DNA from: a virus
Taxonomy: Duplodnaviria > Heunggongvirae > Uroviricota > Caudoviricetes
Direction: 5' to 3' (one strand)
Virus record (IMG/VR): IMGVR_UViG_3300028883_000047
Coordinates: 11,681-75,680 of that record
DNA: 64,000 nucleotides
Each line of letters opens with the position of its first letter. The first letter of the stretch is position 1. The notes under the pieces were generated by a model that was given only the letters and a program-made list of their open reading frames with translations, was not told the DNA's origin and searched no databases. Below, in pieces: positions 12,059-50,194 of the stretch. The translations under genes were made by a program, and so were the position numbers.

Positions 12059-12304
12059 TTAATGTGGTGATGCATTTGCTCGTTCCGGGTTATGGTTACG
12101 TACCGCCTCTTCCGAGGTCCGGTACAACAATTCTGGATTACAGAACCACTCACGCCGAAGTCCTGCTTGAACATTACCAGAGAATCCAACCGGCTGATCA
12201 AACACCACGTAAGCAGTTTGAGGATAGCCGGTTTGTTCTTCTCCTATCAACGTTCCAGGAACGTGCGGATTAGCCACATGATAAATGGTTTCGCCATTAT
12301 TCAT
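12059..12304 (-). CDS. hypothetical protein (81 aa)
   Basis: ORF. Confidence 0.35.
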   Translation of the reverse strand: MNNGETIYHVANPHVPGTLIGEEQTGYPQTAYVVFDQPVGFSGNVQAGLRREWFCNPELLYRTSEEAVRNHNPERANASPH

Positions 12305-13439
12305 CTTCCTTCTCCAAATCTTTTAGGCCGAGCTGCTTCCACTTAGACTTCAAGAAGTCTTTGTAGCTGAATTCCTTTCCGGCATACTTGTTCATGGCTA
12401 GCCCAAAGAACATTGTGCCGTTCAATTCTTCCTGGCCGAGGATAGCATACTCTTTACGTTCCAGATGCTTATTGCGCTCATAGAAACGCTCAACAGTATC
12501 AACCATATGGTTGTACTTCTCCTCAACGAATTCTTCCATTTCCGCGATCGTCTGCAATGCAAGAGGATCGTCATGAAACAGAGTCTTCATGTCGTCAGTA
12601 GCTTCTTCCAGCACAGCTTCAAACAAACGACGAGGTGAGTTGATATTATCCTTCGTATGATGCAATGCCAAATACCAAGTCGTTTTGATCTTTACGCGCT
12701 GGCCAGAAGTCAGACGAACCACAAAACCTTCGATGTTCTGCATGTCTGGAATAGACGCAACGAACTTCGCCGGATCGTCGACATTGAACCGTTCAGTCCA
12801 TCGAGCTTGTACTTCCGGATACGCAGAGCCGAACTCGTCCTTATCAAGGTATGAGCCATCGACGATGTAACGGATATTCAGCACCCGCAGCTCTGGCTTT
12901 TCATAGCCAAGAACAATACGGTTGTGTGGAGCAACCCACTCCATATTCACGGTGTATCCGTGCCCGGTCAGGTCAGCGAGCTCGCGGAAGAACGCATCAT
13001 ATACAGCATTCATCATCAGCCACTTTTCAGCATCAACTGCCTGGTCGCTCGACAGAGAGCCCTTAGTCTTTAACCGCAGTGCTCCGTTGGAATCCATATA
13101 TGTAGAGATCAAGGATCCATCAGCCTTATCTTCGATCAGGTCGATCTCAGACAGGTCAAGCTCCATCGTAAACGGATTCTCGTACAGGTTGAAGAACTTT
13201 TCAGGAGGCAAAGCAGCCAATCGCACAGGTACCGCATCCTTACCTTCCTCAGTGATCTCGAACATATGTCCACGACACTCGAGAGCACTCGGCTTACAGA
13301 ACTCAGTGTATGAGGCCAGACGGTAGTTGAAGATACGATACCACGCTCCATTCAACTCCTGGTCGGCATAGTAGAACGCTTCACTCTCGTCGGCGAGAGT
13401 CATCAAGTCATTCCACAGCTGTCGTTGAAAATCGTTCAT
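12297..13439 (-). CDS. rnlA: RNA ligase 1 (T4 Rnl1 / gene 63-like)
   Basis: Strong similarity to T4 Rnl1: ALECRGHMFE, KFFNLYENPFTM, KADGSLISTY nucleotidyl-transferase lysine motif; 380 aa. Confidence 0.85.
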   Translation of the reverse strand: MNDFQRQLWNDLMTLADESEAFYYADQELNGAWYRIFNYRLASYTEFCKPSALECRGHMFEITEEGKDAVPVRLAALPPEKFFNLYENPFTMELDLSEIDLIEDKADGSLISTYMDSNGALRLKTKGSLSSDQAVDAEKWLMMNAVYDAFFRELADLTGHGYTVNMEWVAPHNRIVLGYEKPELRVLNIRYIVDGSYLDKDEFGSAYPEVQARWTERFNVDDPAKFVASIPDMQNIEGFVVRLTSGQRVKIKTTWYLALHHTKDNINSPRRLFEAVLEEATDDMKTLFHDDPLALQTIAEMEEFVEEKYNHMVDTVERFYERNKHLERKEYAILGQEELNGTMFFGLAMNKYAGKEFSYKDFLKSKWKQLGLKDLEKEDE

Positions 13440-14020: not shown

Positions 14021-14752
14021 TCAATAGGGTTCGACGAATCTTTCTTCAGTAATCGCATCAATCATCGTCATCGTTTTGCTACGCCAAGTGTCAATAAACC
14101 AGACGTCGCCGACTTTTAATGCACGTTGAACAGGAGTATGACCGCAGAAATTCAACCGATACCGTTCCGGATGGAACTCGATGCCATGCCCAGCTGGACG
14201 CATGTTAGCAACGTTCTTAGCCGCTTCAGTAACTAAATTCCTAGCCCATACAAGCCTAGCGAATCCCGGATCATTATGATTGATCGCCTCTCCTAGAACT
14301 TTTCTGAAATATGCATCAGGCCAACCCGCTGGCATCTCAGCGTGGACGATTCGGAATGCGTGTTCTTCTCCATCTTCGCCTACCTCAATAACCCACGGCA
14401 GGTCACGAATACGATCTCGCAGCCAGTTATAATCCAGGCCGTATCTTTCGAGGTCATCAAGACACTGAGTTCCTCCGTTGGCTACCCACGTGTCCCACCA
14501 ATCATTGTCGAGGGCCATCAGTTCATGATTGCCTTTGATTGCGTAACGTCGTCCACCTTGAAAGAAATCGAGAACTTTGTAGCTATCAGGGCCACGATCA
14601 ATCATATCACCAACAGTGTATACAACATCTTTCGTTGGGTCGTAGTTCGCTTTTTCCAGCAGGCGCTGGAATATCTCGTAGCGACCGTGAATGTCGCCCA
14701 CGATCAAATGACGGTCATCGTCAAGATCGAGCTTGAGGGTATGATTTAGCAT
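14021..14752 (-). CDS. PPP-family Ser/Thr phosphatase / metallophosphoesterase (lambda-phosphatase-like)
   Basis: GDIHGRYE, GDMIDRG, GNHE metallophosphatase motifs. Confidence 0.75.
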   Translation of the reverse strand: MLNHTLKLDLDDDRHLIVGDIHGRYEIFQRLLEKANYDPTKDVVYTVGDMIDRGPDSYKVLDFFQGGRRYAIKGNHELMALDNDWWDTWVANGGTQCLDDLERYGLDYNWLRDRIRDLPWVIEVGEDGEEHAFRIVHAEMPAGWPDAYFRKVLGEAINHNDPGFARLVWARNLVTEAAKNVANMRPAGHGIEFHPERYRLNFCGHTPVQRALKVGDVWFIDTWRSKTMTMIDAITEERFVEPY

Positions 14753-28363: not shown

Positions 28364-28439
<76 letters not shown>

Positions 28440-28448
28440 AAAATAAGT

Positions 28449-28471
28449 GCGGGGTGGAATTAGTTCCCCGC
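28449..28471 (-). terminator. GC hairpin (GCGGGG..CCCCGC) followed on minus by ACTTATTTT, immediately upstream of tRNA-Thr
   Basis: 6-bp GC stem; T-rich 3' flank on minus strand. Confidence 0.35.
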
Positions 28472-28652
28472 AGCAGTCTGGGCGGCTGGTTACATTCCAA
28501 AACCCCTATGCCCACGTCGCTTATAAAACTCTGCCACATATCTCCAGGATTGCTCACAGACGGTTATGGTTTCCCGTTAGTCCCAGGAGCGTGATCCTAT
28601 GTGGCCAGGACCATGTTCAGTTCAAATATTATATCTTTGATTGTCGTTTATT

Positions 28653-29009
28653 TCAACGAGTACCTTTCTTAGGTGCGTGTTTATCGCAACGAGTAACTAA
28701 CCATCCGCCTCGGCGAAGCTCTCCTGGTTCACCACAGATATCGCAAGTTCTAGCAGCTTCTTCTTCGGCAGCAGCAATAACGTCATGAGCTTCTTGACCA
28801 GCGCCACTCACGTAGTATCGAAGACCGCCGAACTTCTCTTTGATCTGATCGATTTTGTAGTCAGGGTAAATCCGACCGAGAGCTTCGTTCAGTCTAATGA
28901 CGATGGGTAACCATCCTTTGCCGATAGAAGCGCCACATCCCATTCCAGCTTTCAGACGTTTCTGAATATCTTCAGGGAAGTCGCTTTCGTCAACGTAATC
29001 GTTGCTCAT
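28653..29009 (-). CDS. hypothetical protein (118 aa)
   Basis: ORF. Confidence 0.45.
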   Translation of the reverse strand: MSNDYVDESDFPEDIQKRLKAGMGCGASIGKGWLPIVIRLNEALGRIYPDYKIDQIKEKFGGLRYYVSGAGQEAHDVIAAAEEEAARTCDICGEPGELRRGGWLVTRCDKHAPKKGTR

Positions 29010-29041
29010 AGTTTCACCTCATTGTAACTAGACGGGAGCGG

Positions 29042-29115
29042 GTGGGAATCGAACCTCACACTCAGCTAATTTTATTGCATGCATACAGTGCCCATCCCGA
29101 TTCAGTAGCTTAGCT
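29042..29115 (-). ncRNA. tRNA-like element / probable tRNA remnant (T-arm-like GGTTCGATTCC, no matching 5' acceptor)
   Basis: TTCGATT T-loop-like motif inside an 8-bp bulged hairpin; no CCA; no complementary 5' acceptor found within 300 nt. Confidence 0.25.
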
Positions 29116-29312
29116 GTCGCTACCTAGTGTCCTGATCTGGTTATAGGTCCAAACCGTACTTGACTAGTATTTCCAGTCAGCACCAACAAACCATCACATC
29201 GCACAAAGGACCTGTCGCCCCCATTAAAGAACTGGTGCCCATCTTGGATATCGACTGTCAGTACTAACTATCGACCCCACCCATTGTACTGGGGGCGTGG
29301 GCATTAAAAATT

Positions 29313-29418
29313 TGGTGGAGCGAGGGAGGATCGAACTCCCGACCTATGCCTTGCTAAAAACCCTCACCAAGGAAGATCCTTAGCAAGGGCATCGCTCTCC
29401 CGGCTGAGCTACCGCCCC
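29313..29418 (-). tRNA. tRNA-Ala-like gene with ~30-nt insertion in anticodon arm (106 nt; intron-like extended anticodon helix)
   Basis: Acceptor GGGGCGG/TCGCTCC with G3-U70, canonical D-arm (GCTC/GAGC), T-arm GGGAG-TTCGATC-CTCCC, CCA; anticodon stem ATGCC/GGCAT is extended by CTTGCTAA/TTAGCAAG pairing around a 22-nt loop. Confidence 0.55.
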
Positions 29419-29756
29419 ATGAAGAGTGGGTCTATGACCGTCCCCACTCTCTTTGCACTAACGACCTCACGCGTCTAATAGAGTACCTCGTTAATGCTCA
29501 TCCCATTACTTGGATTCGCGCCATGGGGGCGCGCATGTCACTCTTCAACCGTCTGACAAGTAACGTCGACCATCTTATTTGCGTCCGCAGGTCGGGTGGA
29601 CGGGTCAATTCGAAAGCTGACACCAGCCTTATCCAAGGGCTGTAGGGAAATTTGCCGTAGTGTGTTGCAGCACCTGTGCCCGCACCCGTATCGCGGTCAT
29701 GTAGGATATGTCAGCAATACGTATATGATAAAGAAAACCTCAGTGTTTGTCAACTA

Positions 29757-30386
29757 TCAGTTATGATACTCTACCGTAACATCACCGACGCGATGGCGGT
29801 CATTGTTAATATCTAATCGCAATGTTTGCCACGTACTTCCATCAAGTGCGTAGTCAGAGTGGTCTACAACACGAGAACCGAACGGAGAACCGTTCTTATT
29901 CACTGTCAGCTGGGCCGTTGACGCATCGATCGGTGAGTACAGAATCTCCCATTCGGCGTAAGCATCTCGTGTATTTCCGACAATTGCGTTAACGTAGCTA
30001 TTATCCCACGCATCATCTGTATGTCTAAGCGTAACCCAATCATCACCGTCGCGGTATCCGCGAATTTGGAATGGACCGATAATGACGTAATTCAGATAGT
30101 TAGCAAGGTAATCTGCGTTTGCTGTTCTGAGTGTGATTCTGTAGTACGTGTTTCGGTAAAACGTCCACGTATCGAGTTTTTGCGTTCGCGCCGTTCCCGT
30201 GCCATAATAATGATCAATCCACGTACCATTCCCATCTGTTGTCGTGGTTAGGTTTCCTGCTGGATTACCCGGAACAGCAGCCATGTTGCTAAGGTCATTA
30301 GCAACGGTATATAACGTGGTCCAGATGTTTGAACCGGTTCCTTGTGTGTACCCCATCACCAAATACGGCATAACAAATCTCTCCAA
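29757..30386 (-). CDS. hypothetical protein (209 aa)
   Basis: ORF. Confidence 0.45.
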   Translation of the reverse strand: MERFVMPYLVMGYTQGTGSNIWTTLYTVANDLSNMAAVPGNPAGNLTTTTDGNGTWIDHYYGTGTARTQKLDTWTFYRNTYYRITLRTANADYLANYLNYVIIGPFQIRGYRDGDDWVTLRHTDDAWDNSYVNAIVGNTRDAYAEWEILYSPIDASTAQLTVNKNGSPFGSRVVDHSDYALDGSTWQTLRLDINNDRHRVGDVTVEYHN

Positions 30387-30420
30387 TCAAATTGTTTATT
30401 GCCTATTTATGGTGGCAGTT

Positions 30421-30496
30421 TGGAGCTACCGACCGGAATCGAACCGGTGACCTCACCCTTACCAAGGGTGTGCTCTACCTGCTGAGCTACGGTAGC
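30421..30496 (-). tRNA. tRNA-Thr (anticodon GGU)
   Basis: Cloverleaf with anticodon stem CACCC/GGGTG loop TTGGTAA, T-loop TTCGATT, CCA. Confidence 0.75.
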
Positions 30497-30512
30497 ATGA
30501 AACTATTTAGTT

Positions 30513-30587
30513 TGGAGCTCCCTGCCGGAATCGAACCGACCTCTCAGCATTACGAATGCCGTGCATCACCGACAATGCTTAGGGAGC
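30513..30587 (-). tRNA. tRNA-Thr (anticodon CGU)
   Basis: Anticodon loop TTCGTAA; A8; T-loop TTCGATT; CCA. Confidence 0.65.
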
Positions 30588-30592
30588 AAATT

Positions 30593-30669
30593 TGGTAGGA
30601 CCGGAGGGAGTCGAGCCCTCGACCTCCGCAATGTCGCTGCGGCGCTCTGACCAACTGAGCTACGGTCCT
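30593..30669 (-). tRNA. tRNA with GAC (Val) anticodon; atypical loop GCGACAT (C33) and T-loop CTCGACT
   Basis: Acceptor AGGACCG/CGGTCCT, D GCTC/GAGC, anticodon stem CCGCA/TGCGG, CCA. Confidence 0.5.
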
Positions 30670-31180
30670 ATAATTCGTCTTTGTACTTTTTCATCAGATC
30701 TTTGAGGAGCTTCTTTTCATCGAGAATCTTCTTCTCTTCAGCTTTCGCCTTCTTTGCTTTTTCGTTGCGCCGACGCACCTTTGCTTGCTCACGCTTCTTG
30801 ATCCGAGTGATTACTTGCGCGTCTGTTTCAGGTATATCCGCCTCGAGGTATACTTCAAGATAGTGTGTTACGGACGAATCACAACTGTAATAGTCACTAT
30901 CTTCTCCCCTACGGATCATACGACGAGCGTCGCGAGGAAGGTCGAACTCTTCGGTTTGTTCGTCGAACCACTTGTTAACTTCTGTCAGCAACGCGTCGAT
31001 CGACAACCCCGAATCAAGACCAGAGTCGAGGTTAGCGATGTAGTCCGCACGAGTGGATGTTAGTTGCTGAGTTATCGAGTTTCGTTCCTTATCAATGTCG
31101 AAGTTTGTCTTCACCCAATCGGCAGTGATGTCATTGATCCTCGTTATTCCTTTCGTCTTGTCCGTCATCACCATCTCCAA
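30668..31180 (-). CDS. hypothetical protein with acidic core and Lys-rich C-terminal tail (170 aa)
   Basis: ORF. Confidence 0.45.
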   Translation of the reverse strand: MEMVMTDKTKGITRINDITADWVKTNFDIDKERNSITQQLTSTRADYIANLDSGLDSGLSIDALLTEVNKWFDEQTEEFDLPRDARRMIRRGEDSDYYSCDSSVTHYLEVYLEADIPETDAQVITRIKKREQAKVRRRNEKAKKAKAEEKKILDEKKLLKDLMKKYKDEL

Positions 31181-31184
31181 GATT

Positions 31185-31259
<75 letters not shown>

Positions 31260-31261
<2 letters not shown>

Positions 31262-31586
31262 AATGTAAGTATACATTACCATATACTATTGCCAAAAATA
31301 CAACATTTAACACTATCAGCATTTGGTATGTGATCCACCGAAAAAGGATAACCGAAAGAATAGCAAATGCAGTTAGTTTGTATGTTGCTAATCCGACAGT
31401 GCCACCATATTCAATCACAGGACGAATAAATGGGTTCATTTCAACTGCCGCACCGTATGTTGCAACATTGCTTACGGTCGATATAAAATCAAGAAGGTTT
31501 ACCGCAACAAAAGCGATCCAAAGAAGGACGACGGAATTTTCGTTGCTGAAGTTTCGTTCTAATGTTAGGTCTATGCTTAGGGCCAT
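31260..31586 (-). CDS. small membrane protein (start uncertain)
   Basis: Hydrophobic ORF; overlaps 31489-31887 ORF by 98 nt so one start is likely internal. Confidence 0.35.
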
Positions 31587-31887
31587 ATACCTCTTTCCTC
31601 CAACCTAATCGTGGTCCAAAGTCACATGCTGGACGAACAACGAATCGGTTACGATCAGGATCCCACCCAACATATCCATCACAGGGACTATGTTTTTTTA
31701 TAGTCAGATGAGGGCAGATTTCACTACGAACCCATCCAAACACTCTACCATAACCATCCATCACACCCCAATACCAAGTACGGTCGGGCCTATATGGTTT
31801 CCTCAGCTTTCTGCGAACATTCACTGAAAGATTGCTACTGCCAAAGCAGCTACAAGACTCCAGCCTGTGGCGACACCATAATGCCAC
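31489..31887 (-). CDS. hypothetical Cys/Arg-rich protein (132 aa)
   Basis: ORF. Confidence 0.35.
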   Translation of the reverse strand: MALWCRHRLESCSCFGSSNLSVNVRRKLRKPYRPDRTWYWGVMDGYGRVFGWVRSEICPHLTIKKHSPCDGYVGWDPDRNRFVVRPACDFGPRLGWRKEVYGPKHRPNIRTKLQQRKFRRPSLDRFCCGKPS

Positions 31888-32009
31888 CAGACCTCAAGGT
31901 CTTTTGGGCCTACGGATGCTCCACCGGCAGTATACGTTGAGTTGATCTTGCTCTTTGCTCTGACGAACAGAAGAACGGTCAGTAGTGCAACAAATATCCA
32001 TGCAAACAT
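31821..32009 (-). CDS. small membrane protein (62 aa)
   Basis: Two hydrophobic helices. Confidence 0.35.
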   Translation of the reverse strand: MFAWIFVALLTVLLFVRAKSKINSTYTAGGASVGPKDLEVWWHYGVATGWSLVAALAVAIFQ

Positions 32010-32040
32010 CTCACATATCCTCGTATGTGGTTAATGAATT

Positions 32041-32116
32041 TGGCTCCTGCGGGAGGGCTCGAACCTCCGACAAGTCGATTAACAGTCGACCACTCTACCA
32101 ACTGAGTTACACAGGA
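32041..32116 (-). tRNA. tRNA-Asn (anticodon GUU)
   Basis: Anticodon stem GTCGA/TCGAC loop CTGTTAA; T-loop TTCGAGC; CCA. Confidence 0.7.
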
Positions 32117-32198
32117 ATAAAATAGTTACCCCATAATAATATATTTTATAGGGTAAGTCAACTCGCGGGACTTACGCTCCGTTCAGCTGCCCTACGTT

Positions 32199-32272
32199 TG
32201 GTAGCTCCTACTGGAATCGAACCAGTGTCTTCGCCTTGTAAGGGCGATGCTAATCCCCTCAGCTAAGGAGCT
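32199..32272 (-). tRNA. tRNA-Val (anticodon UAC)
   Basis: Anticodon stem TCGCC/GGCGA loop CTTACAA; T-loop TTCGATT; CCA. Confidence 0.7.
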
Positions 32273-32538
32273 ATATTTTTCAGTACTTTGTCCAACCACC
32301 AATCTGGTAGATCGTTATCATCATACAGTTCGCGCTTAAAAAGCAACCCGCGCTCAATGTCTTCTTTCCACATCGCAACGGTTACGTTTAGCATTTTCTT
32401 TCCTATGTAATAACCGTTGGATGGTTTGCAGTGAACATCACCATAACTTTCAGACAAGAACAGCTCCAACATACTCTCTTCGCTGTAATCAGAGCACTCT
32501 AACCAACTACGCGAAAAGTATTTGTACACTTCGCACAT
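32263..32538 (-). CDS. hypothetical protein (91 aa)
   Basis: ORF. Confidence 0.4.
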   Translation of the reverse strand: MCEVYKYFSRSWLECSDYSEESMLELFLSESYGDVHCKPSNGYYIGKKMLNVTVAMWKEDIERGLLFKRELYDDNDLPDWWLDKVLKNIAP

Positions 32539-32600
32539 CCGTCTGAACTTTTTACTTACTCTCCTAGGTTTGCTTGGCGCTGAGTCATTTCGTTATCCTC

Positions 32601-32816
32601 TCAATCTTCGCGGATAACTCTCAGAGCCTCCACCTTAGTGAAATCGGGAATCATGTTCCCGTTATAAATCAACCTCCAAGTACCATCTGGCAACTCATCA
32701 AGGTGGATCATTCGCTTGCTCGTCTTAACAGCAGTCGCTTTAGAGAGTATGAGCTCTTCGCCTGTACCCTCAATCTTAATCGCGCGTTTCATCAACAACC
32801 TCCATTGCACGATCAA
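32601..32816 (-). CDS. hypothetical protein (71 aa)
   Basis: ORF. Confidence 0.35.
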   Translation of the reverse strand: MIVQWRLLMKRAIKIEGTGEELILSKATAVKTSKRMIHLDELPDGTWRLIYNGNMIPDFTKVEALRVIRED

Positions 32817-33054
32817 ATTGTGCTGCTTGGTGTTTTCCGAACAGTTCCTTAACGGATGTAGCTGCTCGTTCAGCTAGGCTCAAGGCTTGTAGCAACAACG
32901 CTCCTGTCCGAGCATCGCCTTCCGTTTCTCCAGTAGCCAACGCTTTCTGATACGATTGGTAGATTTCAGGATCAACATAGATGCGTTCACCTTCGTTCGT
33001 TATCAGATTGTCAAAGTAGTGCAATTGTTTTTCTTTATCGAATGCGAATGACAT
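32776..33054 (-). CDS. hypothetical protein (92 aa)
   Basis: ORF. Confidence 0.4.
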   Translation of the reverse strand: MSFAFDKEKQLHYFDNLITNEGERIYVDPEIYQSYQKALATGETEGDARTGALLLQALSLAERAATSVKELFGKHQAAQFDRAMEVVDETRD

Positions 33055-33076
33055 CTCTATCTCCTATTGTTGTAGT

Positions 33077-33151
33077 TGGAGCCCTGTGCCAGATTCGAAC
33101 TGACTTCCGCGACGTTACAAGGGTCGGCTTCACCATCAAAGTTTACAGGGC
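33077..33151 (-). ncRNA. aberrant tRNA-like gene (possible 9-nt anticodon loop CCTTGTAAC, weak D-arm)
   Basis: Canonical acceptor GCCCTGT/ACAGGGC, T-arm GTCAG-TTCGAAT-CTGGC and CCA, but D-stem mismatched and anticodon stem needs a bulge. Confidence 0.4.
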
Positions 33152-33217
33152 GAAATCAAGACGCATTTTACTTTTCAGATTAACGGTCTGGTGTATAAAA
33201 TTGCTGTTAGCGTCTTT

Positions 33218-33295
33218 TGGTGGGAGCACAGGGATTCGAACCCTGATCAGCCGGATTAAGAGTCCGGGGTACTAGCCTATTTGTACGACACTCCC
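33218..33295 (-). tRNA. tRNA-Lys (anticodon CUU)
   Basis: Anticodon stem CCGGA/TCCGG loop CTCTTAA; D GTAC/GTAC; T-loop TTCGAAT; CCA. Confidence 0.7.
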
Positions 33296-33301
33296 ATAAT
33301 T

Positions 33302-33377
<76 letters not shown>

Positions 33378-33429
33378 ATACTGTTGGTCTTTGATACCCA
33401 GGACCAATGTCTAAAGACTGGGATAGATA

Positions 33430-33627
33430 TTATCTAATTCTTCTAATCGAAGAGCGTAGCTTCATGCGGCGAATATACCGCTTGAGTTTACTACCTGATA
33501 GCTTACGCCCCATGTTTGTCTTACGGAGCTTCTGCTTCAGTCGCATTCTTCTCATCATCTTACGATATCGAGAACCACGCTTCCTCCGACCATGATGTAC
33601 TTTCTTTCTATCATGTCTCGCAGGCAT
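33430..33627 (-). CDS. extremely basic small protein (65 aa, ~50% Arg/Lys)
   Basis: AGGAGA SD 7 nt upstream of ATG; sequence MPARHDRKKVHHGRRKRGSRYRKMMRRMRLKQKLRK... Confidence 0.45.
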   Translation of the reverse strand: MPARHDRKKVHHGRRKRGSRYRKMMRRMRLKQKLRKTNMGRKLSGSKLKRYIRRMKLRSSIRRIR

Positions 33628-33819
33628 CTTATTTCTCCTAGCTGGTTAATCATTTGATTCCCATGCCAGCTAGGCTTGCTAGCTGGCGATCAGCTAGCAA
33701 CTTCATTAACGTGTTTCATCTCCTTCCCTCCTATGAGGTTAGTTGTTTGGTGAGGCGTCTACTAGGAGCAGCCGATCTTAGTCCGTCGCTGCTCCGTTCG
33801 GGAGTACTCACACGCCTCA

Positions 33820-34125
33820 TTATTCTTTGTCAGGGTATTGAGCATCAACTTCCTCAATGTATGCATAAGGACTTTGCCCTGGCTCAAACATTTTGATGTT
33901 CTTAAAGCCATTCTCTTCGGTGATTAGGCTTTCGTCCTCGTTGATTGAACCTTCATACTTTCCGGCGCCTTTTTTGTTCATCAAGGCGCCAGTTGCTGGA
34001 TCAATACTCCCCCACTTGGTGTGCGGTTTGCCGATAGGCTCAACATAGTACTGCTTGCCCGTTCGGATCGATACCACAATGTGGCGTCCAGTATGATCTG
34101 TGTCTGTGAGGAATTGTGCCCTCAA
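33820..34125 (-). CDS. hypothetical protein (101 aa)
   Basis: ORF. Confidence 0.4.
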   Translation of the reverse strand: MRAQFLTDTDHTGRHIVVSIRTGKQYYVEPIGKPHTKWGSIDPATGALMNKKGAGKYEGSINEDESLITEENGFKNIKMFEPGQSPYAYIEEVDAQYPDKE

Positions 34126-34170
34126 GTCTTTAGTTACCCCATTTTCGTTCTCCTGTTGTTGGGTTGTAAT

Positions 34171-34246
34171 TGGTAGGCCGCCTGGGACTCGAACCCAGAT
34201 CTGCCGGATTAAAAGTCCGGTGTTCTAGCCATTGAACTAACGACCC
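34171..34246 (-). tRNA. tRNA-Lys (anticodon UUU)
   Basis: Anticodon stem CCGGA/TCCGG loop CTTTTAA; T-loop TTCGAGT; CCA; acceptor has three G-U pairs. Confidence 0.6.
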
Positions 34247-34252
34247 ATTGTT

Positions 34253-34329
34253 TGGTACGCCCGGTTGGAATCGAACCAACTCCGATCTGGTTAAAAGCCA
34301 GGTGTGCAATGCCTTTACACTACGGACGC
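34253..34329 (-). tRNA. tRNA-Lys (anticodon UUU), second copy
   Basis: Anticodon stem CTGG/CCAG loop CTTTTAA; T-loop TTCGATT; CCA. Confidence 0.6.
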
Positions 34330-34335
34330 ATAATT

Positions 34336-34414
34336 TGGTGGAGAATATCGGACTCGAACCGATCTGATTTCTCGGGTGCAAGCCGAGTGTCCACCCCTGG
34401 CAGACCCATTCCCC
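34336..34414 (-). tRNA. tRNA-Ala (anticodon UGC)
   Basis: G3-U70, anticodon stem CTCGG/CCGAG loop CTTGCAC; T-loop TTCGAGT; CCA; 3-bp D-stem. Confidence 0.6.
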
Positions 34415-34422
34415 ATATTGTT

Positions 34423-34500
34423 TGGCTGTGTCGGTAGGGCTCGAACCTACACTCCCCGCTTTCAAATGACGGCCCGTCGTTCGGGAGCTCTGCCACGACT
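34423..34500 (-). ncRNA. tRNA-like element (canonical T-arm GTAGG-TTCGAGC-CCTAC plus CCA; 5' half non-canonical)
   Basis: 3' half looks like a tRNA but I could not find a complementary 5' acceptor strand; possibly degenerate or type-II tRNA misfolded by hand. Confidence 0.3.
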
Positions 34501-34762
34501 AATCAGCTTTCGTTTCATGTTCATCTGTCTTTTCGGCTTGTACGATCGAATGGAAGCATCCACGCATCATCATTTCGAACTGTGATGCGTTTTGACAGCC
34601 TATAGTATGTTACTAATAACCTTTCGCCTTTGAGTCTTACAACACAATAAATCTGTCCGGTTCCGCCAAGAACCAGAAGGCCCATAGTCTCTTTATTGGA
34701 CGTGATTTTGGATTGGCGTCCTACTAACACATCCTCAGATGGAATTGGGCAATACCACAAAC

Positions 34763-34839
34763 TGGCTCCGGTAAGAGGGATCGAACCTCTCTACACCTCG
34801 GTTAACAGCCGAGTTGGTTTCTCCATTGACCATACCGGA
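34763..34839 (-). tRNA. tRNA-Asn (anticodon GUU), second copy; irregular D-arm
   Basis: Anticodon stem CTCGG/CCGAG loop CTGTTAA; T-loop TTCGATC; CCA. Confidence 0.55.
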
Positions 34840-34845
34840 ATAAAT

Positions 34846-34923
34846 TGGTAGCTCTCGCCAGGGTCGAACTGGCCACCTCTCGATTATCGGTCGAGTGCTC
34901 TACCTACCATGAGCTAGAGAGCT
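34846..34923 (-). tRNA. tRNA with GAU (Ile) anticodon, second copy; atypical loop CCGATAA (C33)
   Basis: Acceptor AGCTCTC/GAGAGCT, D GCTC/GAGC, anticodon stem CTCGA/TCGAG, T-loop TTCGACC, CCA. Confidence 0.55.
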
Positions 34924-39580: not shown

Positions 39581-39606
39581 AAAAGGGGGCCGAAGCCCCC
39601 TTTTAT
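39581..39606 (-). terminator. terminator hairpin GGGGGCCGAAGCCCCC + T-run
   Basis: Same 16-nt hairpin sequence recurs at 50171-50186. Confidence 0.5.
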
Positions 39607-40751
39607 TACACCACCTCCTTTATTTTTTCAAGGCGTGTTTGGTCTATTGCGAGCCCTATCTGCTCGCCCTTGAGAACGGCTTGTTGCTCGACAGTTAGGG
39701 TTGCAAAAGACACTTTCCTCGCTTCCCTAAACGCCGTTAGTAGGGCATCCATCCCTGACTCAATCCTACTATCAAAACTAGCAAACCCCAACGCTGAACT
39801 CAATTCAACCATATCATCCGGACGTCTGAATGCATCAAGCATGTGGAGTGCTTTCAGTACCTTCTCTGGATCATGTTGTTCAGCAGCACGATCTTTCAAG
39901 TAACGCAGCAACCTGTTAAACTTCGTTGCCAGCCGCTGGATATCGTTAGGTGCTTTCAACCGAACATAGAACTCATCTGCTTTATCCAGATCGACCAATG
40001 ACGTCAGTAGCATGTACCGAACAAACATATCAGCGTTACGCAACGCTGCACGAGACAATCCATATCCAGAGTGAATCAACGACCGACCGAGTTCCGGAAA
40101 CAATACGTCCTTCGCGCCGCATGCCTCCAAAGTCCAGAAGAACTTGGTTGGTTGTTCAGCCGTTAGTGCACCCTCAAGCTCTTTCCATACCCGTTCTTCG
40201 GTTAGGTGATCAAGCTCACCTGATTTAACCAACGAACGCATCAGGTCCATCGTCTCAGGAGCGACGCTAAAATTGTACCTAGCAGCGAATCGAGCAACAC
40301 GTAGAACACGGACTGGATCTTCAGCAAACGCATCTGACACGTGCCGAAGAACTCCATTACGAAGGTCCTCAACACCACCATAAGGATCGATGATTTCATC
40401 AGACAGCTTTGCGAAACCAGCCTCGTTCCAACTCAGAACTTCGCGCGCCATGGCATTGCACGTCAGGTCACGACGGAGCAGATCTTCTTCGATCGTGATC
40501 TCCGGATCGCTGTACACTTCGAAACCGTGATAGCCTTCACCAGTCTTCTTTTCAGTCCGAGCAAGAGCGTATTCGTCACGTGTCTTTGGATGATGAAAAA
40601 CAGGGAACGCTTGAGCTTCGATAGGAATATACCCCAGCGTTTTCATGTCTACCGCGGTAGCGCCGGTCACGACGAAATCATGATCTTTAGCTTCACGACC
40701 AAGAACTCTATCGCGCACATAGCCGCCAACAATGTAAAACTTGATTGTCAC
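39606..40751 (-). CDS. cca: tRNA nucleotidyltransferase (CCA-adding enzyme)
   Basis: MTIKFYIVGGYVRDRVLGREAKDHDFVVTGAT: GG(x)VRD + DxD head-domain motifs; 381 aa. Confidence 0.75.
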   Translation of the reverse strand: MTIKFYIVGGYVRDRVLGREAKDHDFVVTGATAVDMKTLGYIPIEAQAFPVFHHPKTRDEYALARTEKKTGEGYHGFEVYSDPEITIEEDLLRRDLTCNAMAREVLSWNEAGFAKLSDEIIDPYGGVEDLRNGVLRHVSDAFAEDPVRVLRVARFAARYNFSVAPETMDLMRSLVKSGELDHLTEERVWKELEGALTAEQPTKFFWTLEACGAKDVLFPELGRSLIHSGYGLSRAALRNADMFVRYMLLTSLVDLDKADEFYVRLKAPNDIQRLATKFNRLLRYLKDRAAEQHDPEKVLKALHMLDAFRRPDDMVELSSALGFASFDSRIESGMDALLTAFREARKVSFATLTVEQQAVLKGEQIGLAIDQTRLEKIKEVV

Positions 40752-45221: not shown

Positions 45222-45677
45222 TCAGGGCCATTCACATACGTATGTATTAACCCTAGACCACTTGCTGTCCGCAAACTTAATAATCGGCTCGACTTCTTTT
45301 TCCCAGTCAAGCCCACCCAGTCCTGCACCAATTTTGGGGATGTATAGTGGAAGGTGGTACATATCTGCCCACGCATATGCATCCCACAAAGACAATTCAA
45401 TAGCCTTAGGATCAGCGAATCGACCGTTTTTTCCGTAAAACACCTGCGTGTAGCAATTAGCAACGAATAGTTCATCTCCCATTCCGACGTTGATGACGTG
45501 GCAGGAACTTAACATTGCTTTACCTTTCGGTGCGTTCATGTAACGGTCGTAGACGATTGGCCACTTCTCTTTAATGGCTTTAGCCACGCCAGAACCCATT
45601 GCATGTTGACAGTTAACACCATGAGCTATTACGCCCATGGTCACTGTAGTAATATCTTTGTGGACGTATTCAATCAT
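45222..45677 (-). CDS. macro domain protein (ADP-ribose binding/processing)
   Basis: VTMGVIAHGVNCQHAMGSGVAKAI matches macro-domain N-terminal glycine-rich signature. Confidence 0.7.
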   Translation of the reverse strand: MIEYVHKDITTVTMGVIAHGVNCQHAMGSGVAKAIKEKWPIVYDRYMNAPKGKAMLSSCHVINVGMGDELFVANCYTQVFYGKNGRFADPKAIELSLWDAYAWADMYHLPLYIPKIGAGLGGLDWEKEVEPIIKFADSKWSRVNTYVCEWP

Positions 45678-45973
45678 TATCCGATACCGTACTTTTCGTA
45701 ACCCATCTCAGCAAGAAGCTCGAATGCAGCCTCGGTAGTATCCTGATCGATAGGCTTAGCTGATGCAACGCTATACAGGAAGTTGAGCATTTTTTCGTGT
45801 TCACGAGCAATCGGGTGGTAATGGCTCATGTCAATGGTCAGAGCCTTTTCGCGCGTAACATAACCAGAAATGATTTCAGGATGAGTCCAGCCGTTGATGC
45901 CAACCATCTCCCATCCCTGTTTAATTAACTGATGATCAATCTCATCTTTTGGCTCACGTATGTAGCGAGGCAC
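45677..45973 (-). CDS. hypothetical protein (98 aa)
   Basis: ORF. Confidence 0.4.
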   Translation of the reverse strand: MPRYIREPKDEIDHQLIKQGWEMVGINGWTHPEIISGYVTREKALTIDMSHYHPIAREHEKMLNFLYSVASAKPIDQDTTEAAFELLAEMGYEKYGIG

Positions 45974-46233
45974 TATTCTTTCTCCTGTTCCTTTCTTAAT
46001 TGTTCAAAGTATTCGCGCTCTTCGTCAGATATTACGCGCTCAATTTCTTGCCAACTCCCCGCTTGACACATATCGCAACCGGGGTAATGTCCTTGATGAT
46101 GACTACATATACTGTACCACATAAACATCTTCCCGTCCTTTAGAAGCACCGGCTCGAGAAAATAGTTATAGCTATTGAGCAGGTACTCCGAAGGCAGACC
46201 ATCAGACATTATGTTGGGCGTACTATCAGTCAT
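45973..46233 (-). CDS. hypothetical protein (86 aa)
   Basis: ORF. Confidence 0.4.
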   Translation of the reverse strand: MTDSTPNIMSDGLPSEYLLNSYNYFLEPVLLKDGKMFMWYSICSHHQGHYPGCDMCQAGSWQEIERVISDEEREYFEQLRKEQEKE

Positions 46234-46597
46234 TCTGCAGCTGTTCTAGAATCTCGCCAGGAACTTCGAGGTTCACAGCTCCTACCACTTCTGGCTCAGT
46301 ACGGAAGCGGGTAACATCACCATTCTCAAATCGCTTTTGATCTTCATATGGTGCTGCGACAATCCGATAGTACTCTTTACTTATAGCATCAAGAACGCCC
46401 AGTGCGTCATTGATCTGTGTATAACGAGTTGAATCACGATCACCATACACCATCATCAGCAAACGGGTAACTGCGTAGTTAATGTTACCTTCCATATTGT
46501 TCTGATCATCATCAATCTCCATATCGACGAGTGTTTGATGCAGCTGCTCGATTGCGGGATCGAGCACGTCCCTTTTGTCTTGTTTAATGTACGGCAT
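46226..46597 (-). CDS. hypothetical protein (123 aa)
   Basis: ORF. Confidence 0.4.
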   Translation of the reverse strand: MPYIKQDKRDVLDPAIEQLHQTLVDMEIDDDQNNMEGNINYAVTRLLMMVYGDRDSTRYTQINDALGVLDAISKEYYRIVAAPYEDQKRFENGDVTRFRTEPEVVGAVNLEVPGEILEQLQND

Positions 46598-46651
46598 GTT
46601 TACCTCTTAAATTGCGTTTATGTGCTATAAATTACCTACTGACCGAAGCCC

Positions 46652-47377
46652 TTACTCGTCTTTCATTTCTTCCAACGCTTGAGCTTCAAGATATTCGATG
46701 AAAAATTCATAACGGTCTTTCATGTCTTCGTGTACTTCCTTGACTATCCTAACACTGTCTTTACTATACAAGGGCGAAACTTTAGAAACGAAATGGTGTT
46801 TGTCTTTCTTGAATGGTTCACCACTCAGCGAACACAAATAGTACTCGCCACCATGATGATTACCGTAGATGTCGCGTTTCAGGATTCCTTCTGGAAGCCT
46901 GTCCATGTACTCCATGCAATCATCGAAGTTAGTAAAGATTTTCGTAGATAATGCATGCAACCAACCGGGAACTTCTTTCTGCCAATTCTCCCATGCCGAT
47001 ACTACAAACACAGGAATATCATACAGAAAGGCAAATTGTGCTTCAGATATTGTTCCAGCTCCCCGTCGGACGCTTTCGTCATAGTACAATATAACAGCGT
47101 CTGTATCATTTTTAAGCAGTTCGAGGTCAGTGAAGACAAAGTGTTTACGGATGTTTGCTTTGCGTAGGAGCTCGTCGTCCTCACCAAAGTCCATGTATAG
47201 CTTTCCGTGTTCGGAAGCATACGCTTTGTCGAGAGCGGTAATATCGAGAGGGAAGTAACCCAACTCCCGCAATGCATCTGCAATCACGAGCCGCCATTCG
47301 CCACCTAAATCGATAGCATGTTCCATTCCCCCCGAGAGGTAAATGTTACCCCTTGGATACTTTGGATGCTTGATCAT
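46652..47377 (-). CDS. nucleoside 2-deoxyribosyltransferase-like (NDT/DNPH1-fold) protein
   Basis: NIYLSGGM near N-terminus and RRGAGTISEAQFAFLYDIPVFVV resembling the NDT catalytic Glu motif. Confidence 0.45.
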   Translation of the reverse strand: MIKHPKYPRGNIYLSGGMEHAIDLGGEWRLVIADALRELGYFPLDITALDKAYASEHGKLYMDFGEDDELLRKANIRKHFVFTDLELLKNDTDAVILYYDESVRRGAGTISEAQFAFLYDIPVFVVSAWENWQKEVPGWLHALSTKIFTNFDDCMEYMDRLPEGILKRDIYGNHHGGEYYLCSLSGEPFKKDKHHFVSKVSPLYSKDSVRIVKEVHEDMKDRYEFFIEYLEAQALEEMKDE

Positions 47378-47592
47378 GCCTTTTCTGGTTCCTTGTACTT
47401 AACCATCGCTTGAACGAAGATTTTGTTGTTTGTTGCTGGAATAACGTACTCCATGATTTCGCCGTTGAGAACGTAGCCTTCTTTAATGAGCTCGTTTACA
47501 CCTATTTCAACGTCAAGAGGTGACCCCTTGATAATACGAAATACTGCTGGTCTTGCCTTGTATCTTGTTTCGGTCCACTTCCATTCACTCAT
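47374..47592 (-). CDS. hypothetical protein (72 aa)
   Basis: ORF. Confidence 0.35.
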   Translation of the reverse strand: MSEWKWTETRYKARPAVFRIIKGSPLDVEIGVNELIKEGYVLNGEIMEYVIPATNNKIFVQAMVKYKEPEKA

Positions 47593-48184: not shown

Positions 48185-48251
48185 TAATAAGGCAAGTGTT
48201 CAATGATGCTAAAGAAAGCAGCAATCTCTACAGGACAAATATGAAAATGCA

Positions 48252-49568: not shown

Positions 49569-49613
49569 TATCGCTCCTTATGATAGTTATAGAGCGTATG
49601 ATACACAATTTTT

Positions 49614-50190: not shown

Positions 50191-50194
50191 TTCG

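Follow-up and report, generated by a model that had tools for sequence, protein, structure and literature searches.

A phage tRNA-Ala(UGC) gene carries a 30-nt insert that zips its anticodon loop into a long hairpin, and the same architecture recurs in four further genes recovered from metagenomes. We tentatively read the insert as a conserved intervening sequence of a functional phage tRNA, a protein-dependent intron located between nucleotides 36 and 37; the sequence comparisons below point this way, and we put the reading a little short of an even chance. The gene lies in a 64-kb stretch of phage DNA, which was analysed as a whole and is referred to here as the window.

A tRNA-Ala gene with a closed anticodon loop

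The gene and its parts are organized as follows.

29313–29418, minus strand: whole 106-nt tRNA-Ala(UGC) gene including the insert and the encoded CCA (Rfam RF00005; aragorn -i)
29383–29418, minus strand: 5′ exon, tRNA nucleotides 1–36, with the acceptor strand containing G3, the D arm, ATGCC, and C32 U33 U34 G35 C36
29353–29382, minus strand: 30-nt insert TAAGGATCTTCCTTGGTGAGGGTTTTTAGC at 36/37 (aragorn -i and sequence reading)
29313–29352, minus strand: 3′ exon, with A37 A38, GGCAT, the variable loop, the T arm, the acceptor strand containing U70, A73 and CCA

The Rfam tRNA model matches positions 29316–29418 over model positions 1–71 with 50.1 bits (gathering score 29), and its alignment leaves a 34-nt unaligned block inside the anticodon loop. 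ARAGORN does not call the 29313–29418 gene in default mode, and in intron mode reports a tRNA-Ala(tgc) with a 30-nt intron, its sole intron call across the 64-kb window. The intron-aware finder and the covariance model both recover the gene of the original prediction, a minus-strand Ala-type tRNA of 106 nt with a 30-nt anticodon-loop insert. As had also been read, the gene body has G3:U70 in the acceptor stem, normal D and T arms and an encoded CCA; A73 is present too. The Rfam score, G3:U70 and A73 are those of an elongator tRNA-Ala; the 7-nt anticodon loop of an elongator is absent, 37 nt lying between the anticodon-stem strands and folding as a closed helix. A 7-nt loop arises only upon loss of 30 nt, and excision at the size originally proposed restores CUUGCAA with its UGC anticodon. 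In the window copy two further placements of the insert yield an identical product, 36/37 being among the compatible positions. Insert-less phage tRNA-Ala(UGC) genes (Erythrobacter phage XM05 and Tunturi_5) align to the exons with one clean gap inside the loop, between CUUGC and AA, and by this alignment the exons look functional. The locus is probably no assembly artefact, because the identical tRNA and insert is present in contigs of an ENA and of a Logan assembly, which may share reads (source samples ERZ27252208 and SRR8554434); over 2,086 bases, one Logan contig departs from the window at a single position.

The insert and the anticodon stem fold into a single extended arm.

29346–29392, minus strand: extended anticodon arm, a 20-bp helix with a 6-nt loop (MFE folds, covariation)
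29366–29371, minus strand: hairpin loop CUUGGU, to which length variation of the insert within the family is confined
29372–29374, minus strand: invariant UUC atop the 5′ strand, exactly 7 nt past UUGCU (alignment A1)
29363–29365, minus strand: conserved GAG atop the 3′ strand (GGG in homolog L244), pairing with UUC and including an invariant U·G

The arm comprises the 5-bp ATGCC/GGCAT stem, a bulged C32 (29387), a 15-bp helix that includes four G·U pairs, and the loop. Its MFE is −24.2 kcal/mol versus −11.75±2.56 for shuffled sequences (z = −4.86), with 0/200 shuffles as good. An 8-bp continuation of the stem around a 22-nt loop had been proposed; one G was counted twice in that helix, which is really 7 bp plus the bulged C32, and the supposed loop is itself paired, leaving 6 nt. 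The two exon junctions are 2 bp apart with 3′-overhang polarity in both bulge variants (a 5+2 split plus a 1-nt bulge). The arm is thus about two turns of near-perfect double-stranded RNA with an RNase III-type junction offset, and the helix measures 19–20 bp in all five family members.

A family of hairpin-bearing tRNA-Ala genes

The metagenome scan yielded four further tRNA-Ala(UGC) genes (L244, L235, L242 and L248) with a 26–29 nt hairpin at the same position, which together with the window gene constitute the family (n = 5; alignment A1). All four tRNAs reach the Rfam gathering score with the full model, and G3:U70 is present in 5/5 members. The flanks of the four homologs have nothing in common with the window, and GC content ranges from 36% to 45%. 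Their contigs are short, and the presence of a ligase is readable for the window only.

Paired cells make up 95.6% in alignment A1, and 16 pairs are doubly changed, which 0/500 shuffles match; pairing falls to about 50% when the register is shifted. Covarying pairs account for 10/20 of the arm helix (4/5 in the anticodon stem and 6/11 in the insert). Stem length is fixed and length variation is confined to the loop (gap columns of 2–6 nt; folded loops of 3–6 nt). The original prediction allowed for a disrupted pseudogene; the retention of the hairpin with compensatory changes in five divergent genomes speaks against it. Each arm contains 1–4 G·U pairs, and the sense strands fold at −15 to −25 kcal/mol versus −8 to −20 kcal/mol for the antisense strands. 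Judging from these alignments and folds, selection acts on the structure of the arm, at the RNA level and on the sense strand. A DNA palindrome was considered and rejected, the antisense folding much worse than the sense, and so was a repeat or mobile element, as the insert occurs once in the window, has no second copy across the 3.2 Mb of loci examined and resembles no other insert there.

Bases U33, U34, G35, C36, A37 and A38 are invariant in 5/5 members and position 32 is C or U (YUUGC/AA), a pattern that, with five sequences and a roughly estimated p of ~0.04, is no more than suggestive. In L244 and L248 the end of the insert has changed from GC to UA and C32 to U, moving the bulge from C32 to C36 and leaving the anticodon untouched; in these two genes a valid Ala loop, with a purine at 37, results from the 36/37 junction and no other. 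The top pairs U45·G56, U46-A55 and C47-G54 do not covary, the sole change being U46-A55 to U·G in one member. This invariant UUC/GAG top with its U·G wobble suggests a specific protein-binding site; we know of no need for such a site on the part of RNase III.

Two other tRNA genes of the window are informative.

34336–34414, minus strand: second tRNA-Ala(UGC), uninterrupted and divergent, with an unusual D arm (ARAGORN, Rfam)
34171–34246, minus strand: tRNA-Lys(UUU), uninterrupted, whose ortholog in L366 is interrupted

A canonical tRNA-Ala(UGC) had been predicted at the first of these positions; a gene is present there but is hardly canonical, being 79 nt long with an odd D arm and scoring 37.1 bits with Rfam versus 50.1 for the insert-bearing gene. 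In L244 a divergent uninterrupted tRNA-Ala(UGC) adjoins the insert-bearing gene and resembles the second copy of the window, to which it looks homologous. The L244 copy falls below the Rfam threshold, which leaves the insert-bearing gene as the best tRNA-Ala of its 16-tRNA array. A similar zipped insert occurs in a tRNA-Gly(GCC) of L353, and the window, L244 and L353 each also have an uninterrupted tRNA of the same anticodon, which fits either a non-redundant, non-decoding insert-bearing copy or relaxed selection on that copy.

Locus L366 belongs to a syntenic relative of the window phage (59% amino-acid identity for the query protein). Its tRNA-Lys (46.6 bits with the Rfam tRNA model at L366 5340–5478) contains a 66-nt insert (5374–5439) between U34 and U35, a junction fixed by alignment to the uninterrupted window gene, and its exons are 100% and 97.8% identical to the window gene (blastn). 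Bacterial LysRS reads the anticodon, and the intact exons therefore argue for splicing. The predicted fold of this insert has the opposite stagger, with the 3′ exon beginning 2 nt above the 5′ cut, such that a single RNase III rule cannot fit all inserts of the lineage. By this comparison of orthologs, the lineage of the window phage tolerates anticodon-loop inserts.

Further searches delimit the distribution of the family. Among GenBank phages, megablast, blastn and tblastn queries with the locus, its tRNA and the adjacent ORF turned up no relative of this locus. The NAMPT of the window has only distant jumbo-phage relatives. In IMG/VR the exact insert had 0 matches, the neighbouring ORF had no relatives, and loci selected through DsrC were 80 unrelated contigs with hardly any tRNAs. 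An Ala-specific gapped pattern gave five false matches in IMG/VR (ordinary tRNA-Ala genes with GTTCGA downstream by chance) and a family-specific pattern two; the family-specific pattern had eight matches in GTDB genomes, all by chance, and the element is in no cellular genome sampled. A generic IMG/VR scan for a D arm, a long gap and a T loop returned mostly Tyr/Ile-type introns, many of them on giant-virus contigs, along with neighbouring tRNAs fused by ARAGORN, none of it comparable. Upstream, the 204-aa ORF has a single homolog, whose 1-kb contig ends before the tRNA. The 118-aa downstream ORF has 47, and the contexts examined have other tRNAs in the slot or none (e.g. tRNA-Met in L375, and an uninterrupted, loosely similar tRNA-Ala(UGC) in L376). 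Apart from the report on Lak phages discussed below, full-text searches of the literature brought up no account of hairpin-type tRNA introns in phages.

Putative splicing and alternative fates of the transcript

Three genes of the window encode proteins with predicted functions in RNA end processing.

12297–13439, minus strand: T4-type RNA ligase 1 (Rnl1; Pfam RNA_lig_T4_1 1.1e-18, T4_Rnl1_C 1.5e-19)
14021–14752, minus strand: calcineurin-type metallophosphoesterase near Rnl1 (Pfam Metallophos 4.5e-13)
39606–40751, minus strand: nucleotidyltransferase of the CCA-adding or poly(A) polymerase family (Pfam PolyA_pol 6.7e-19, plus an RNA-binding domain)

These Pfam matches bear out the T4-type Rnl1 and CCA enzyme of the original prediction. 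Its kinase/phosphatase pair is represented by the phosphatases only (the metallophosphoesterase and a HAD_SAK_2 protein), the sole P-loop protein in the window being a NadR-like AAA_28. Among the ~70 ORFs scanned in the 64 kb there is no Pfam match to a polynucleotide kinase, an RNase III or a splicing endonuclease (EndA/Sen). Rnl1 contains the tRNA-specific C-terminal domain and is encoded 16 kb from the insert-bearing tRNA, making it a candidate sealing enzyme; the metallophosphoesterase at 14021–14752 is a possible RNA end-healing phosphatase. In enzymatic terms, T4 Pnkp plus Rnl1 match the fungal heal-and-seal ligase. Gene content resembles that of bacterial phages, with a LigA-type ligase, ClpS, TusE/DsrC and T4 gp30.3, and the many tRNAs all have an encoded CCA; the host is evidently bacterial.

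If the insert is an intron, the transcript would fold as a cloverleaf in which the 26–30 nt following C36 pair with the anticodon-loop bases to form a fixed rod of 19–20 bp, and this rod would be a processing signal rather than the end product. A double-strand-specific endonuclease would cleave after C36 and before A37, at sites 2 bp apart across the helix and ~11 bp below the hairpin loop. Excision would free an 11-bp hairpin bearing a 2-nt 3′ overhang, and the tRNA body would keep hold of the two halves, which end in a 3′-OH and a 5′-phosphate. The nick would then be joined by an ATP-dependent tRNA ligase like T4 Rnl1, giving a 76-nt tRNA with the 7-nt loop YUUGCAA, and the sealed junction of the window tRNA would read GAUGCCCUUGC followed directly by AAGGCAU. 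Host RNase III is the simplest candidate for the nuclease, because the five members have no common flanking genes; a ruler-type enzyme reading the UUC/GAG top is the alternative. We infer the removal itself, the identities of the nuclease and ligase and the exact cut sites from sequence and fold. That phages have, in addition, an undescribed protein-only form of tRNA splicing, with a hairpin intron, excision by a double-stranded RNA endonuclease and resealing by Rnl1, is a broader claim that we consider rather unlikely.

The transcript could instead be a stable, non-decoding tRNA-like RNA that is active in its 106-nt form, with the rigid 20-bp arm and its UUC/GAG top as the functional part, an interpretation that we regard as somewhat unlikely yet worth serious attention. 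The tRNA body would allow maturation by RNase P and CCA processing, make the RNA stable and perhaps let AlaRS charge it via G3:U70, and since AlaRS ignores the anticodon the unspliced RNA could be charged and act unaltered. The 106-nt RNA might be a decoy or sponge that draws off a host nuclease or toxin directed at tRNA-Ala, might display a protein-binding hairpin on a tRNA scaffold, or might donate alanine outside translation. Consistent with such an RNA, hairpin length and the top three pairs are conserved as sequence, beyond pairing, and Ala is among the few identities independent of the anticodon (AlaRS and tmRNA are the generally known cases). The window and L244 keep their separate, homologous-looking uninterrupted tRNA-Ala(UGC) genes, the body, even with its insert, is more canonical at 50.1 bits than the other tRNA-Ala(UGC) of the phage at 37.1, and a splicing nuclease was not found among the ~70 window ORFs scanned. 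However, were the helix all that counts, U33–C36 and A37–A38 would be expected to covary like the other pairs, and they are instead invariant, with the helix repaired around them. Inserts are also present in tRNA-Gly(GCC) of L353 and tRNA-Lys(UUU) of L366, whose synthetases do read the anticodon, and the standing of the L244 gene as the best tRNA-Ala of 16 tRNAs is likewise against a non-decoding role.

The excised hairpin of ~30 nt might itself be the product, with the tRNA as its carrier and a double-strand nuclease processing it out, much as pre-miRNA hairpins are linked to tRNAs in murine gammaherpesvirus 68. The fixed hairpin length, conserved top motif and RNase III-like geometry of the product would suit this, but conservation of the anticodon-loop bases, and of the entire tRNA body, is left unexplained, and we think it improbable. 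A role as a base-pairing guide is unlikely, because the stem sequence covaries freely except at three pairs.

We give marginally less credence still to a tRNA pseudogene, broken by chance insertion or by a small palindromic mobile element and tolerated given the second tRNA-Ala(UGC). An uninterrupted isoacceptor is indeed present alongside in three genomes, and we know of no machinery in bacteria for short tRNA introns; but chance breakage sits poorly with five divergent genomes that share the architecture and G3:U70, keep the cloverleaf intact and the stem length fixed, and show 16 doubly changed pairs, and with a structure that depends on G·U pairs and is much weaker on the opposite strand.

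Comparison with known systems and implications

In bacteria and their viruses tRNA introns are, to our knowledge, thought to be removed solely by self-splicing group I ribozymes, and enzyme-driven tRNA splicing is regarded as an archaeal and eukaryal trait. Bacterial 23S rRNAs (Salmonella, Yersinia, Leptospira) reportedly contain intervening sequences excised by RNase III, as Burgin et al. are said to have described in 1990. In these, as here, an extra helix replaces a terminal loop and provides an RNase III-type substrate giving 2-nt 3′ overhangs; they differ in being ~90–150 nt long and in leaving fragments that are not religated, whereas a cut tRNA needs sealing to decode. For the insert-bearing tRNA, the action of RNase III is a proposal. 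The gene also recalls tmRNA and Ala-accepting tRNA-like RNAs in its G3:U70 identity and in the long helix replacing the anticodon arm, but the D arm is normal and there are neither pseudoknots nor a tag reading frame; ARAGORN makes no tmRNA call and Rfam matches tmRNA only in an 8-nt fragment of the CCA end.

Group I introns occur in bacterial and phage tRNA genes (PMC3984707, PMC13011429) and likewise interrupt bacterial-type tRNA genes at the anticodon loop, but they exceed 200 nt and have a catalytic core (P3–P9). The insert, at 30 nt, has no plausible catalytic fold and no match to an intron family in an Rfam scan at gathering or E-value thresholds, in agreement with the initial view that it is far below group I size.

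Archaeal and eukaryal tRNA introns are cut by EndA/Sen at a bulge-helix-bulge and the exons are joined by Trl1 or RtcB (PMC4090602, PMC3400036). They resemble the insert in being short, lying in the anticodon loop, pairing with loop bases and needing an endonuclease and a ligase for removal, and the original prediction saw their geometry mirrored here. The arm is instead one continuous helix of 20 bp whose single bulge is 1 nt, with the junctions 2 bp apart inside it and at 36/37 rather than the canonical 37/38, and the host is evidently bacterial; two 3-nt bulges flanking a 4-bp helix are found neither in the window arm nor in the four homologs. An intron of this type, cut by EndA/Sen and then healed and sealed, is extremely improbable despite the paired loop bases and the RNA ligase and phosphatase genes, given the missing 3-nt bulges and 4-bp central helix, a 3′ junction inside the helix at 36/37, no match to the endonuclease family among the ~70 window ORFs and the bacterial-phage-like gene content.

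T4 repairs tRNA-Lys cleaved by PrrC with Pnkp and Rnl1 (PMC3400036). The ligase family is the same as that proposed for the spliced tRNA-Ala, and in both the tRNA is broken in the anticodon loop with the body holding the halves; the T4 break is host-inflicted damage, whereas here it would be programmed maturation of the phage's own tRNA.

The closest precedent is the set of short enigmatic tRNA introns in Lak megaphages (Devoto et al., bioRxiv 10.1101/356790; Nat Microbiol 2019, PMC6784885), which occur in Phe, Gly, Thr and Tyr tRNAs, some containing a tRNA-like fold, and for which no structural rule or covariation is reported (PMC6784885). Like these, the inserts described here are short non-group-I insertions in tRNAs of large bacteriophages, conserved between genomes and without a known splicing mechanism, and they too vary in presence between related genomes, as with tRNA-Lys of L366 and the window. 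The Ala family differs in being a fixed-length hairpin that zips the anticodon loop at 36/37 in T4-like environmental phages, as compared with the published description of the Lak introns.

Short tRNA insertions of huge phages have been noted once and termed enigmatic, and the hairpin family offers a small test case, comprising five sequences with an 11-bp hairpin of fixed length, a unique junction and a predicted enzyme pair. Standard bacterial finders miss such genes, as ARAGORN does here in default mode, and phage tRNA repertoires are therefore under-counted. If the RNA is not spliced, it would belong to a new class of RNAs that are shaped like a tRNA but have the anticodon blocked, and might serve as a decoy in the arms race between phages and hosts over tRNAs. 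If it is spliced, phages would have independently built cut-and-seal tRNA splicing from a general double-stranded RNA nuclease and a repair ligase, hinting at a role for Rnl1 in the numerous phages for whose hosts no anticodon nuclease is known. Were the protein-only pathway to hold, Rnl1 would be a constitutive splicing ligase in addition to its function in repair, and the enigmatic introns of huge phages would gain a mechanism.

Gene content and tRNA set of the phage

The window derives from an uncultivated phage for which no close relative was found among GenBank phages, and nearly all of its genes lie on a single strand. Pfam matches include an NAD-dependent DNA ligase, T4 Rnl1 with its C-terminal domain, a CCA-adding-type enzyme, NAMPT and NadA, together with NAD kinase, ClpS, a DsrC/TusE-like protein, T4 gp30.3, a HAD_SAK_2 phosphatase, a Macro domain and an SNase-like nuclease. 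The original prediction had named an end-repair set of Rnl1, a kinase/phosphatase pair and a CCA enzyme; the ligase, phosphatase and CCA-adding-type enzyme are present, but neither a polynucleotide kinase nor an RNase III gene was found among the ~70 window ORFs scanned. The loci of most concern here are as follows.

29313-29418, minus strand: tRNA-Ala(UGC) gene with a 30-nt insert in the anticodon loop
34336-34414: uninterrupted tRNA-Ala(UGC)
34171-34246: tRNA-Lys(UUU)
12297-13439: Rnl1 with tRNA-specific C-terminal domain (Pfam)
45222-61820: dense NAD-related cluster (NAMPT, NMNAT-Nudix, NAD kinase, NadA and a NadR-like AAA_28 kinase)
L366:5340-5485 (JGI 3300040801 Ga0450804_0032324; contig of a syntenic relative): tRNA-Lys(UUU) with an insert, compared with window 34171-34246

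The NAD-related cluster also contains adenylosuccinate synthetase, the Macro domain and the HAD_SAK_2 phosphatase, and may constitute an NAD-replenishing counter-defence module.

CCA is encoded in all 22 window tRNAs. Same-anticodon pairs occur in 163-1104 and 28364-34923 (Thr-UGU, Lys-UUU, Ala-UGC, Asn-GUU, Ile-GAU, Asp-GUC and Pro-UGG), and in several of these one member scores well with Rfam while its partner is divergent or under the gathering score. The tRNA-Ala(UGC) at 34336-34414 is present as predicted but is not canonical. It belongs to a recurrent phage variant (also at L244:3101-3175, on a metagenome contig, and in IMG/VR loci L266-L365) with an unusual D arm (GGGGAAUGGG...GGGGUGG...) and a T arm and acceptor, GATCGGTTCGANNCCGATATTCTCCACCA, that we take to be of the Bacteroidota tRNA-Ala type, which may hint at the host. 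Just upstream, 34420-34500 (minus strand) contains a T-arm-like GTAGGTTCGAGCCCTAC, then ...ACAGCCAAAC, and is called by low-threshold ARAGORN only, which reads it as an aberrant tRNA whose anticodon has 4 bases.

Upstream of the insert-bearing gene, a sigma-70-like promoter match (29725-29753, minus strand; TTGACA—17 nt—TATCAT, 11/12) lies at the 3′ end of the preceding ORF ~300 nt ahead of the tRNA, and the intervening 338 nt are without an ORF. Directly downstream, 29032-29222 (minus strand) has a T-arm-like GAGGTTCGATTCCCAC and a 9-bp acceptor-like pairing (AUGGGGGCG/CGCUCCCGU) enclosing ~190 nt; it goes uncalled by both ARAGORN and Rfam, and folding gives no significant signal (z = -1.2). 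In two other loci (L371 and L372), a homolog of the adjoining 118-aa gene lies close to a phage tmRNA.

An alanine tRNA gene with a hairpin in its anticodon loop

The gene at 29313-29418 (minus-strand sequence GGGGCGGTAGCTCAGCCGGGAGAGCGATGCCCTTGCTAAGGATCTTCCTTGGTGAGGGTTTTTAGCAAGGCATAGGTCGGGAGTTCGATCCTCCCTCGCTCCACCA) matches the full Rfam tRNA model (positions 1-71; window 29316-29418) and scores 50.1 bits where the gathering score is 29, leaving a 34-nt unaligned block inside the anticodon loop. ARAGORN reports 21 other tRNAs by default and misses this one; with intron detection it returns tRNA-Ala(tgc) of 76 nt plus a 30-nt intron, the sole intron call in the 64-kb window. Because these matches coincide with a G3:U70 acceptor stem, ordinary D and T arms, A73 and an encoded CCA, the predicted tRNA-Ala with a 30-nt anticodon-loop insert is confirmed, including by covariance model. 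Removal of 30 nt after loop position 3, 4 or 5 always restores CUUGCAA with the expected UGC anticodon. Contigs of ENA and Logan assemblies are 99.95-100% identical to the window over the fetched stretches, and the ENA contig and one Logan contig hold the tRNA with its insert unchanged, so that this is probably not an assembly error, although both assemblies may derive from the same reads. No second copy of the insert was found elsewhere in the window.

The minimum-free-energy fold is a cloverleaf whose anticodon arm comprises the 5-bp ATGCC/GGCAT stem, a bulged C32 and, above it, a 15-bp helix that includes four G.U pairs and ends in a 6-nt CUUGGU loop. The original description of an 8-bp helix around a 22-nt loop undercounts this paired arm and uses one G twice. 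The isolated arm folds at -24.2 kcal/mol, compared with -11.75±2.56 for dinucleotide shuffles (z = -4.86), and 0/200 shuffles fold as well. The suggested likeness to eukaryal and archaeal introns is not supported: the fold lacks the 3-nt bulges and 4-bp central helix of a bulge-helix-bulge and the insert is thus not of that class, for which position and host type are also wrong. A group I intron is rejected, as anticipated, by the small size of the insert and the lack of an Rfam match.

A family of five and evidence for selection on the hairpin

A metagenome scan for tRNA-Ala-like genes with 40-70 nt between D arm and T loop yielded 44 loci, many of them tandem-duplication artefacts. Four (L244, L235, L242 and L248) share the architecture of the window gene, with YUUGC followed by a 26-29 nt hairpin, AA and the anticodon-stem strand, and all four match the full Rfam model above threshold (52-58 bits). 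Their contigs have 36% to 45% GC, and their flanks have nothing in common with the window, nor with each other beyond the tRNA itself. The L244 gene sits in a 16-tRNA array, and L235 has a weak T4 Gp23 match and an HNH gene adjoining its tRNAs; these two and the window look phage-derived, while the L242 and L248 contigs are too short for such judgement. Searched with a family-specific pattern, neither IMG/VR nor a set of 185,579 species-representative genomes yielded a member, and no interrupted tRNA-Ala was found in GenBank phages. The hairpin insert is a rare element, seen in the searched collections on metagenomic contigs alone.

In the five-sequence alignment all length differences are confined to the hairpin loop, the 3′ strand is gap-free, and in every member exactly 7 nt separate UUGCU from UUC. 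With the window gene's structure as reference, 95.6% of cells are paired (mean of 500 shuffles, 78.6%) and 16 pairs are changed on both sides (shuffled mean 8.8; 0/500 reach the observed value); sliding the register by 1-3 columns reduces pairing to ~50%. Ten of the 20 pairs in the arm helix covary, six of them within the insert, whereas U37-A64, U45.G56 and C47-G54 are invariant and U46-A55 differs only in L244 (U.G). Folding energies of the arm range from -15.2 to -25.2 kcal/mol on the sense strand and from -8.3 to -19.7 on the antisense strand; this strand specificity excludes a DNA palindrome and points to a role at the RNA level. A disrupted tRNA pseudogene, an alternative named in the original prediction, is disfavoured, since it leaves unexplained the length confinement, the covariation and the sense-specific fold of a hairpin kept at the same place in four further tRNA-Ala genes.

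Fate of the insert

Judged from sequence comparison, there is slightly less than an even chance that the insert is a protein-dependent hairpin intron that is spliced out. Loop bases U33, U34, G35, C36, A37 and A38 are invariant in the family (position 32 is C or U) beside covarying pairs in the anticodon stem (4/5) and insert (6/11). This contrast favours removal, though only suggestively (p of ~0.04 by a rough estimate). L244 and L248 have UA in place of GC as the final two intron bases and U in place of C at position 32; this keeps the helix but shifts its register, moving the bulge from C32 to C36 with the anticodon untouched. Aligned with uninterrupted phage tRNA-Ala(UGC) genes (Erythrobacter phage XM05 and Tunturi_5), family exons show a single clean gap in CUUGC|AA; XM05 and the L235 exons are 96.6% identical over the aligned part.

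Two syntenic relatives of the window phage (L366 and L367; 59-63% amino-acid identity) were recovered. The L366 ortholog of the window tRNA-Lys(UUU) carries a 66-nt insert between U34 and U35, at a junction that is unique by comparison with the window allele, and its exons match the window gene at 100% and 97.8% identity. Bacterial LysRS requires the anticodon, so the intact exons argue that this lineage is able to splice anticodon-loop inserts. In its predicted fold the 66-nt insert has three hairpins and a short stem that closes them, a cloverleaf-like arrangement.

On a phage-like IMG/VR contig, a tRNA-Gly(GCC)-like gene (L353:529-636) carries a 32-nt insert whose hairpin zips up the anticodon loop as in the window gene. 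It has U73, a GCGGGA acceptor and an 18-bp helix from the zipped loop, and adjoins an uninterrupted tRNA-Gly(GCC) (199-272); a suppressor-type tRNA(CUA) and a permuted tmRNA are also present.

A less likely but serious rival is that the gene yields a stable, non-decoding tRNA-like RNA. Such an RNA would agree with the uninterrupted same-anticodon tRNAs alongside the interrupted ones in the window, L244 and L353, among which the Ala copies in the window and in L244 seem to be homologs; the unspliced RNA would be charged by AlaRS, and the sequence-conserved helix top resembles a putative protein-binding site. The covarying pairs around unchanged loop bases and the L366 tRNA-Lys speak for splicing.

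If the insert is spliced, the junction would be 36/37, because L244 and L248 allow no division other than 5+2 (YUUGC | AA) if an alanine loop with purine 37 is to result. The two junctions then lie 2 bp apart with 3′-overhang polarity in both bulge variants, given a conserved single 5′-strand bulge, with ~11 bp between them and the loop and 9 bp down to the base of the arm (roughly the middle of two dsRNA turns). RNase III products have a 2-bp stagger with a 3′ overhang. A double-strand endonuclease of similar geometry could cut at both junctions; RNase III-type cuts would leave 3′-OH and 5′-phosphate ends, which an Rnl1-type ATP-dependent ligase could seal without a healing step. With no neighbouring genes in common among the five members, the most economical candidate would be a ubiquitous host nuclease. 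The specific route of RNase III with Rnl1 is a proposal of rather low probability and calls for caution on three points: the invariant UUC/GAG top is not among the known requirements of RNase III, the stagger predicted for the L366 insert runs the opposite way, which argues against a single RNase III rule, and neither an RNase III gene nor a polynucleotide kinase turned up in the window.

Several other oversized tRNA-like genes were encountered. A tRNA-Lys(UUU)-like gene (L138:618-728; IMGVR_UViG_3300010430_000038) has a 36-nt hairpin insert and a 22-bp closed anticodon arm, in which the junction stagger would be 3 bp, not 2. A separate family of Ala-identity (G3:U70) RNAs on metagenome contigs (L219, L223, L226, L232, L238, L241 and L245; 106-114 nt, most 113-114 nt) has normal D and T arms and a conserved structured insert of ~38 nt (GUCGCCGCCACCUCGUCUGCG...CGCGGACCGAAGGUCGAUGGUUAUC) replacing the anticodon loop. 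Genes of several apparent identities in IMG/VR (L122, L133, L158, L168 and L190) and metagenomes (L210, L215, L225, L229, L230 and L243) have inserts with a hairpin and then a conserved (G)ACAGCAA motif, and these may be the 'enigmatic' introns of Lak megaphages.

Structurally, the window insert comes closest to the intervening sequences that RNase III excises from some 23S rRNAs; the closest enzymatic analogue is T4 PrrC/Pnkp/Rnl1 tRNA repair (PMC3400036). The nearest precedent is the set of highly conserved short introns in Lak megaphage tRNAs, reported without a structure rule or mechanism by authors who were aware of no previous example in phages and suspected them to be common in large phages (PMC6784885). 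We file the window insert with this known but unexplained kind, the short phage tRNA introns.
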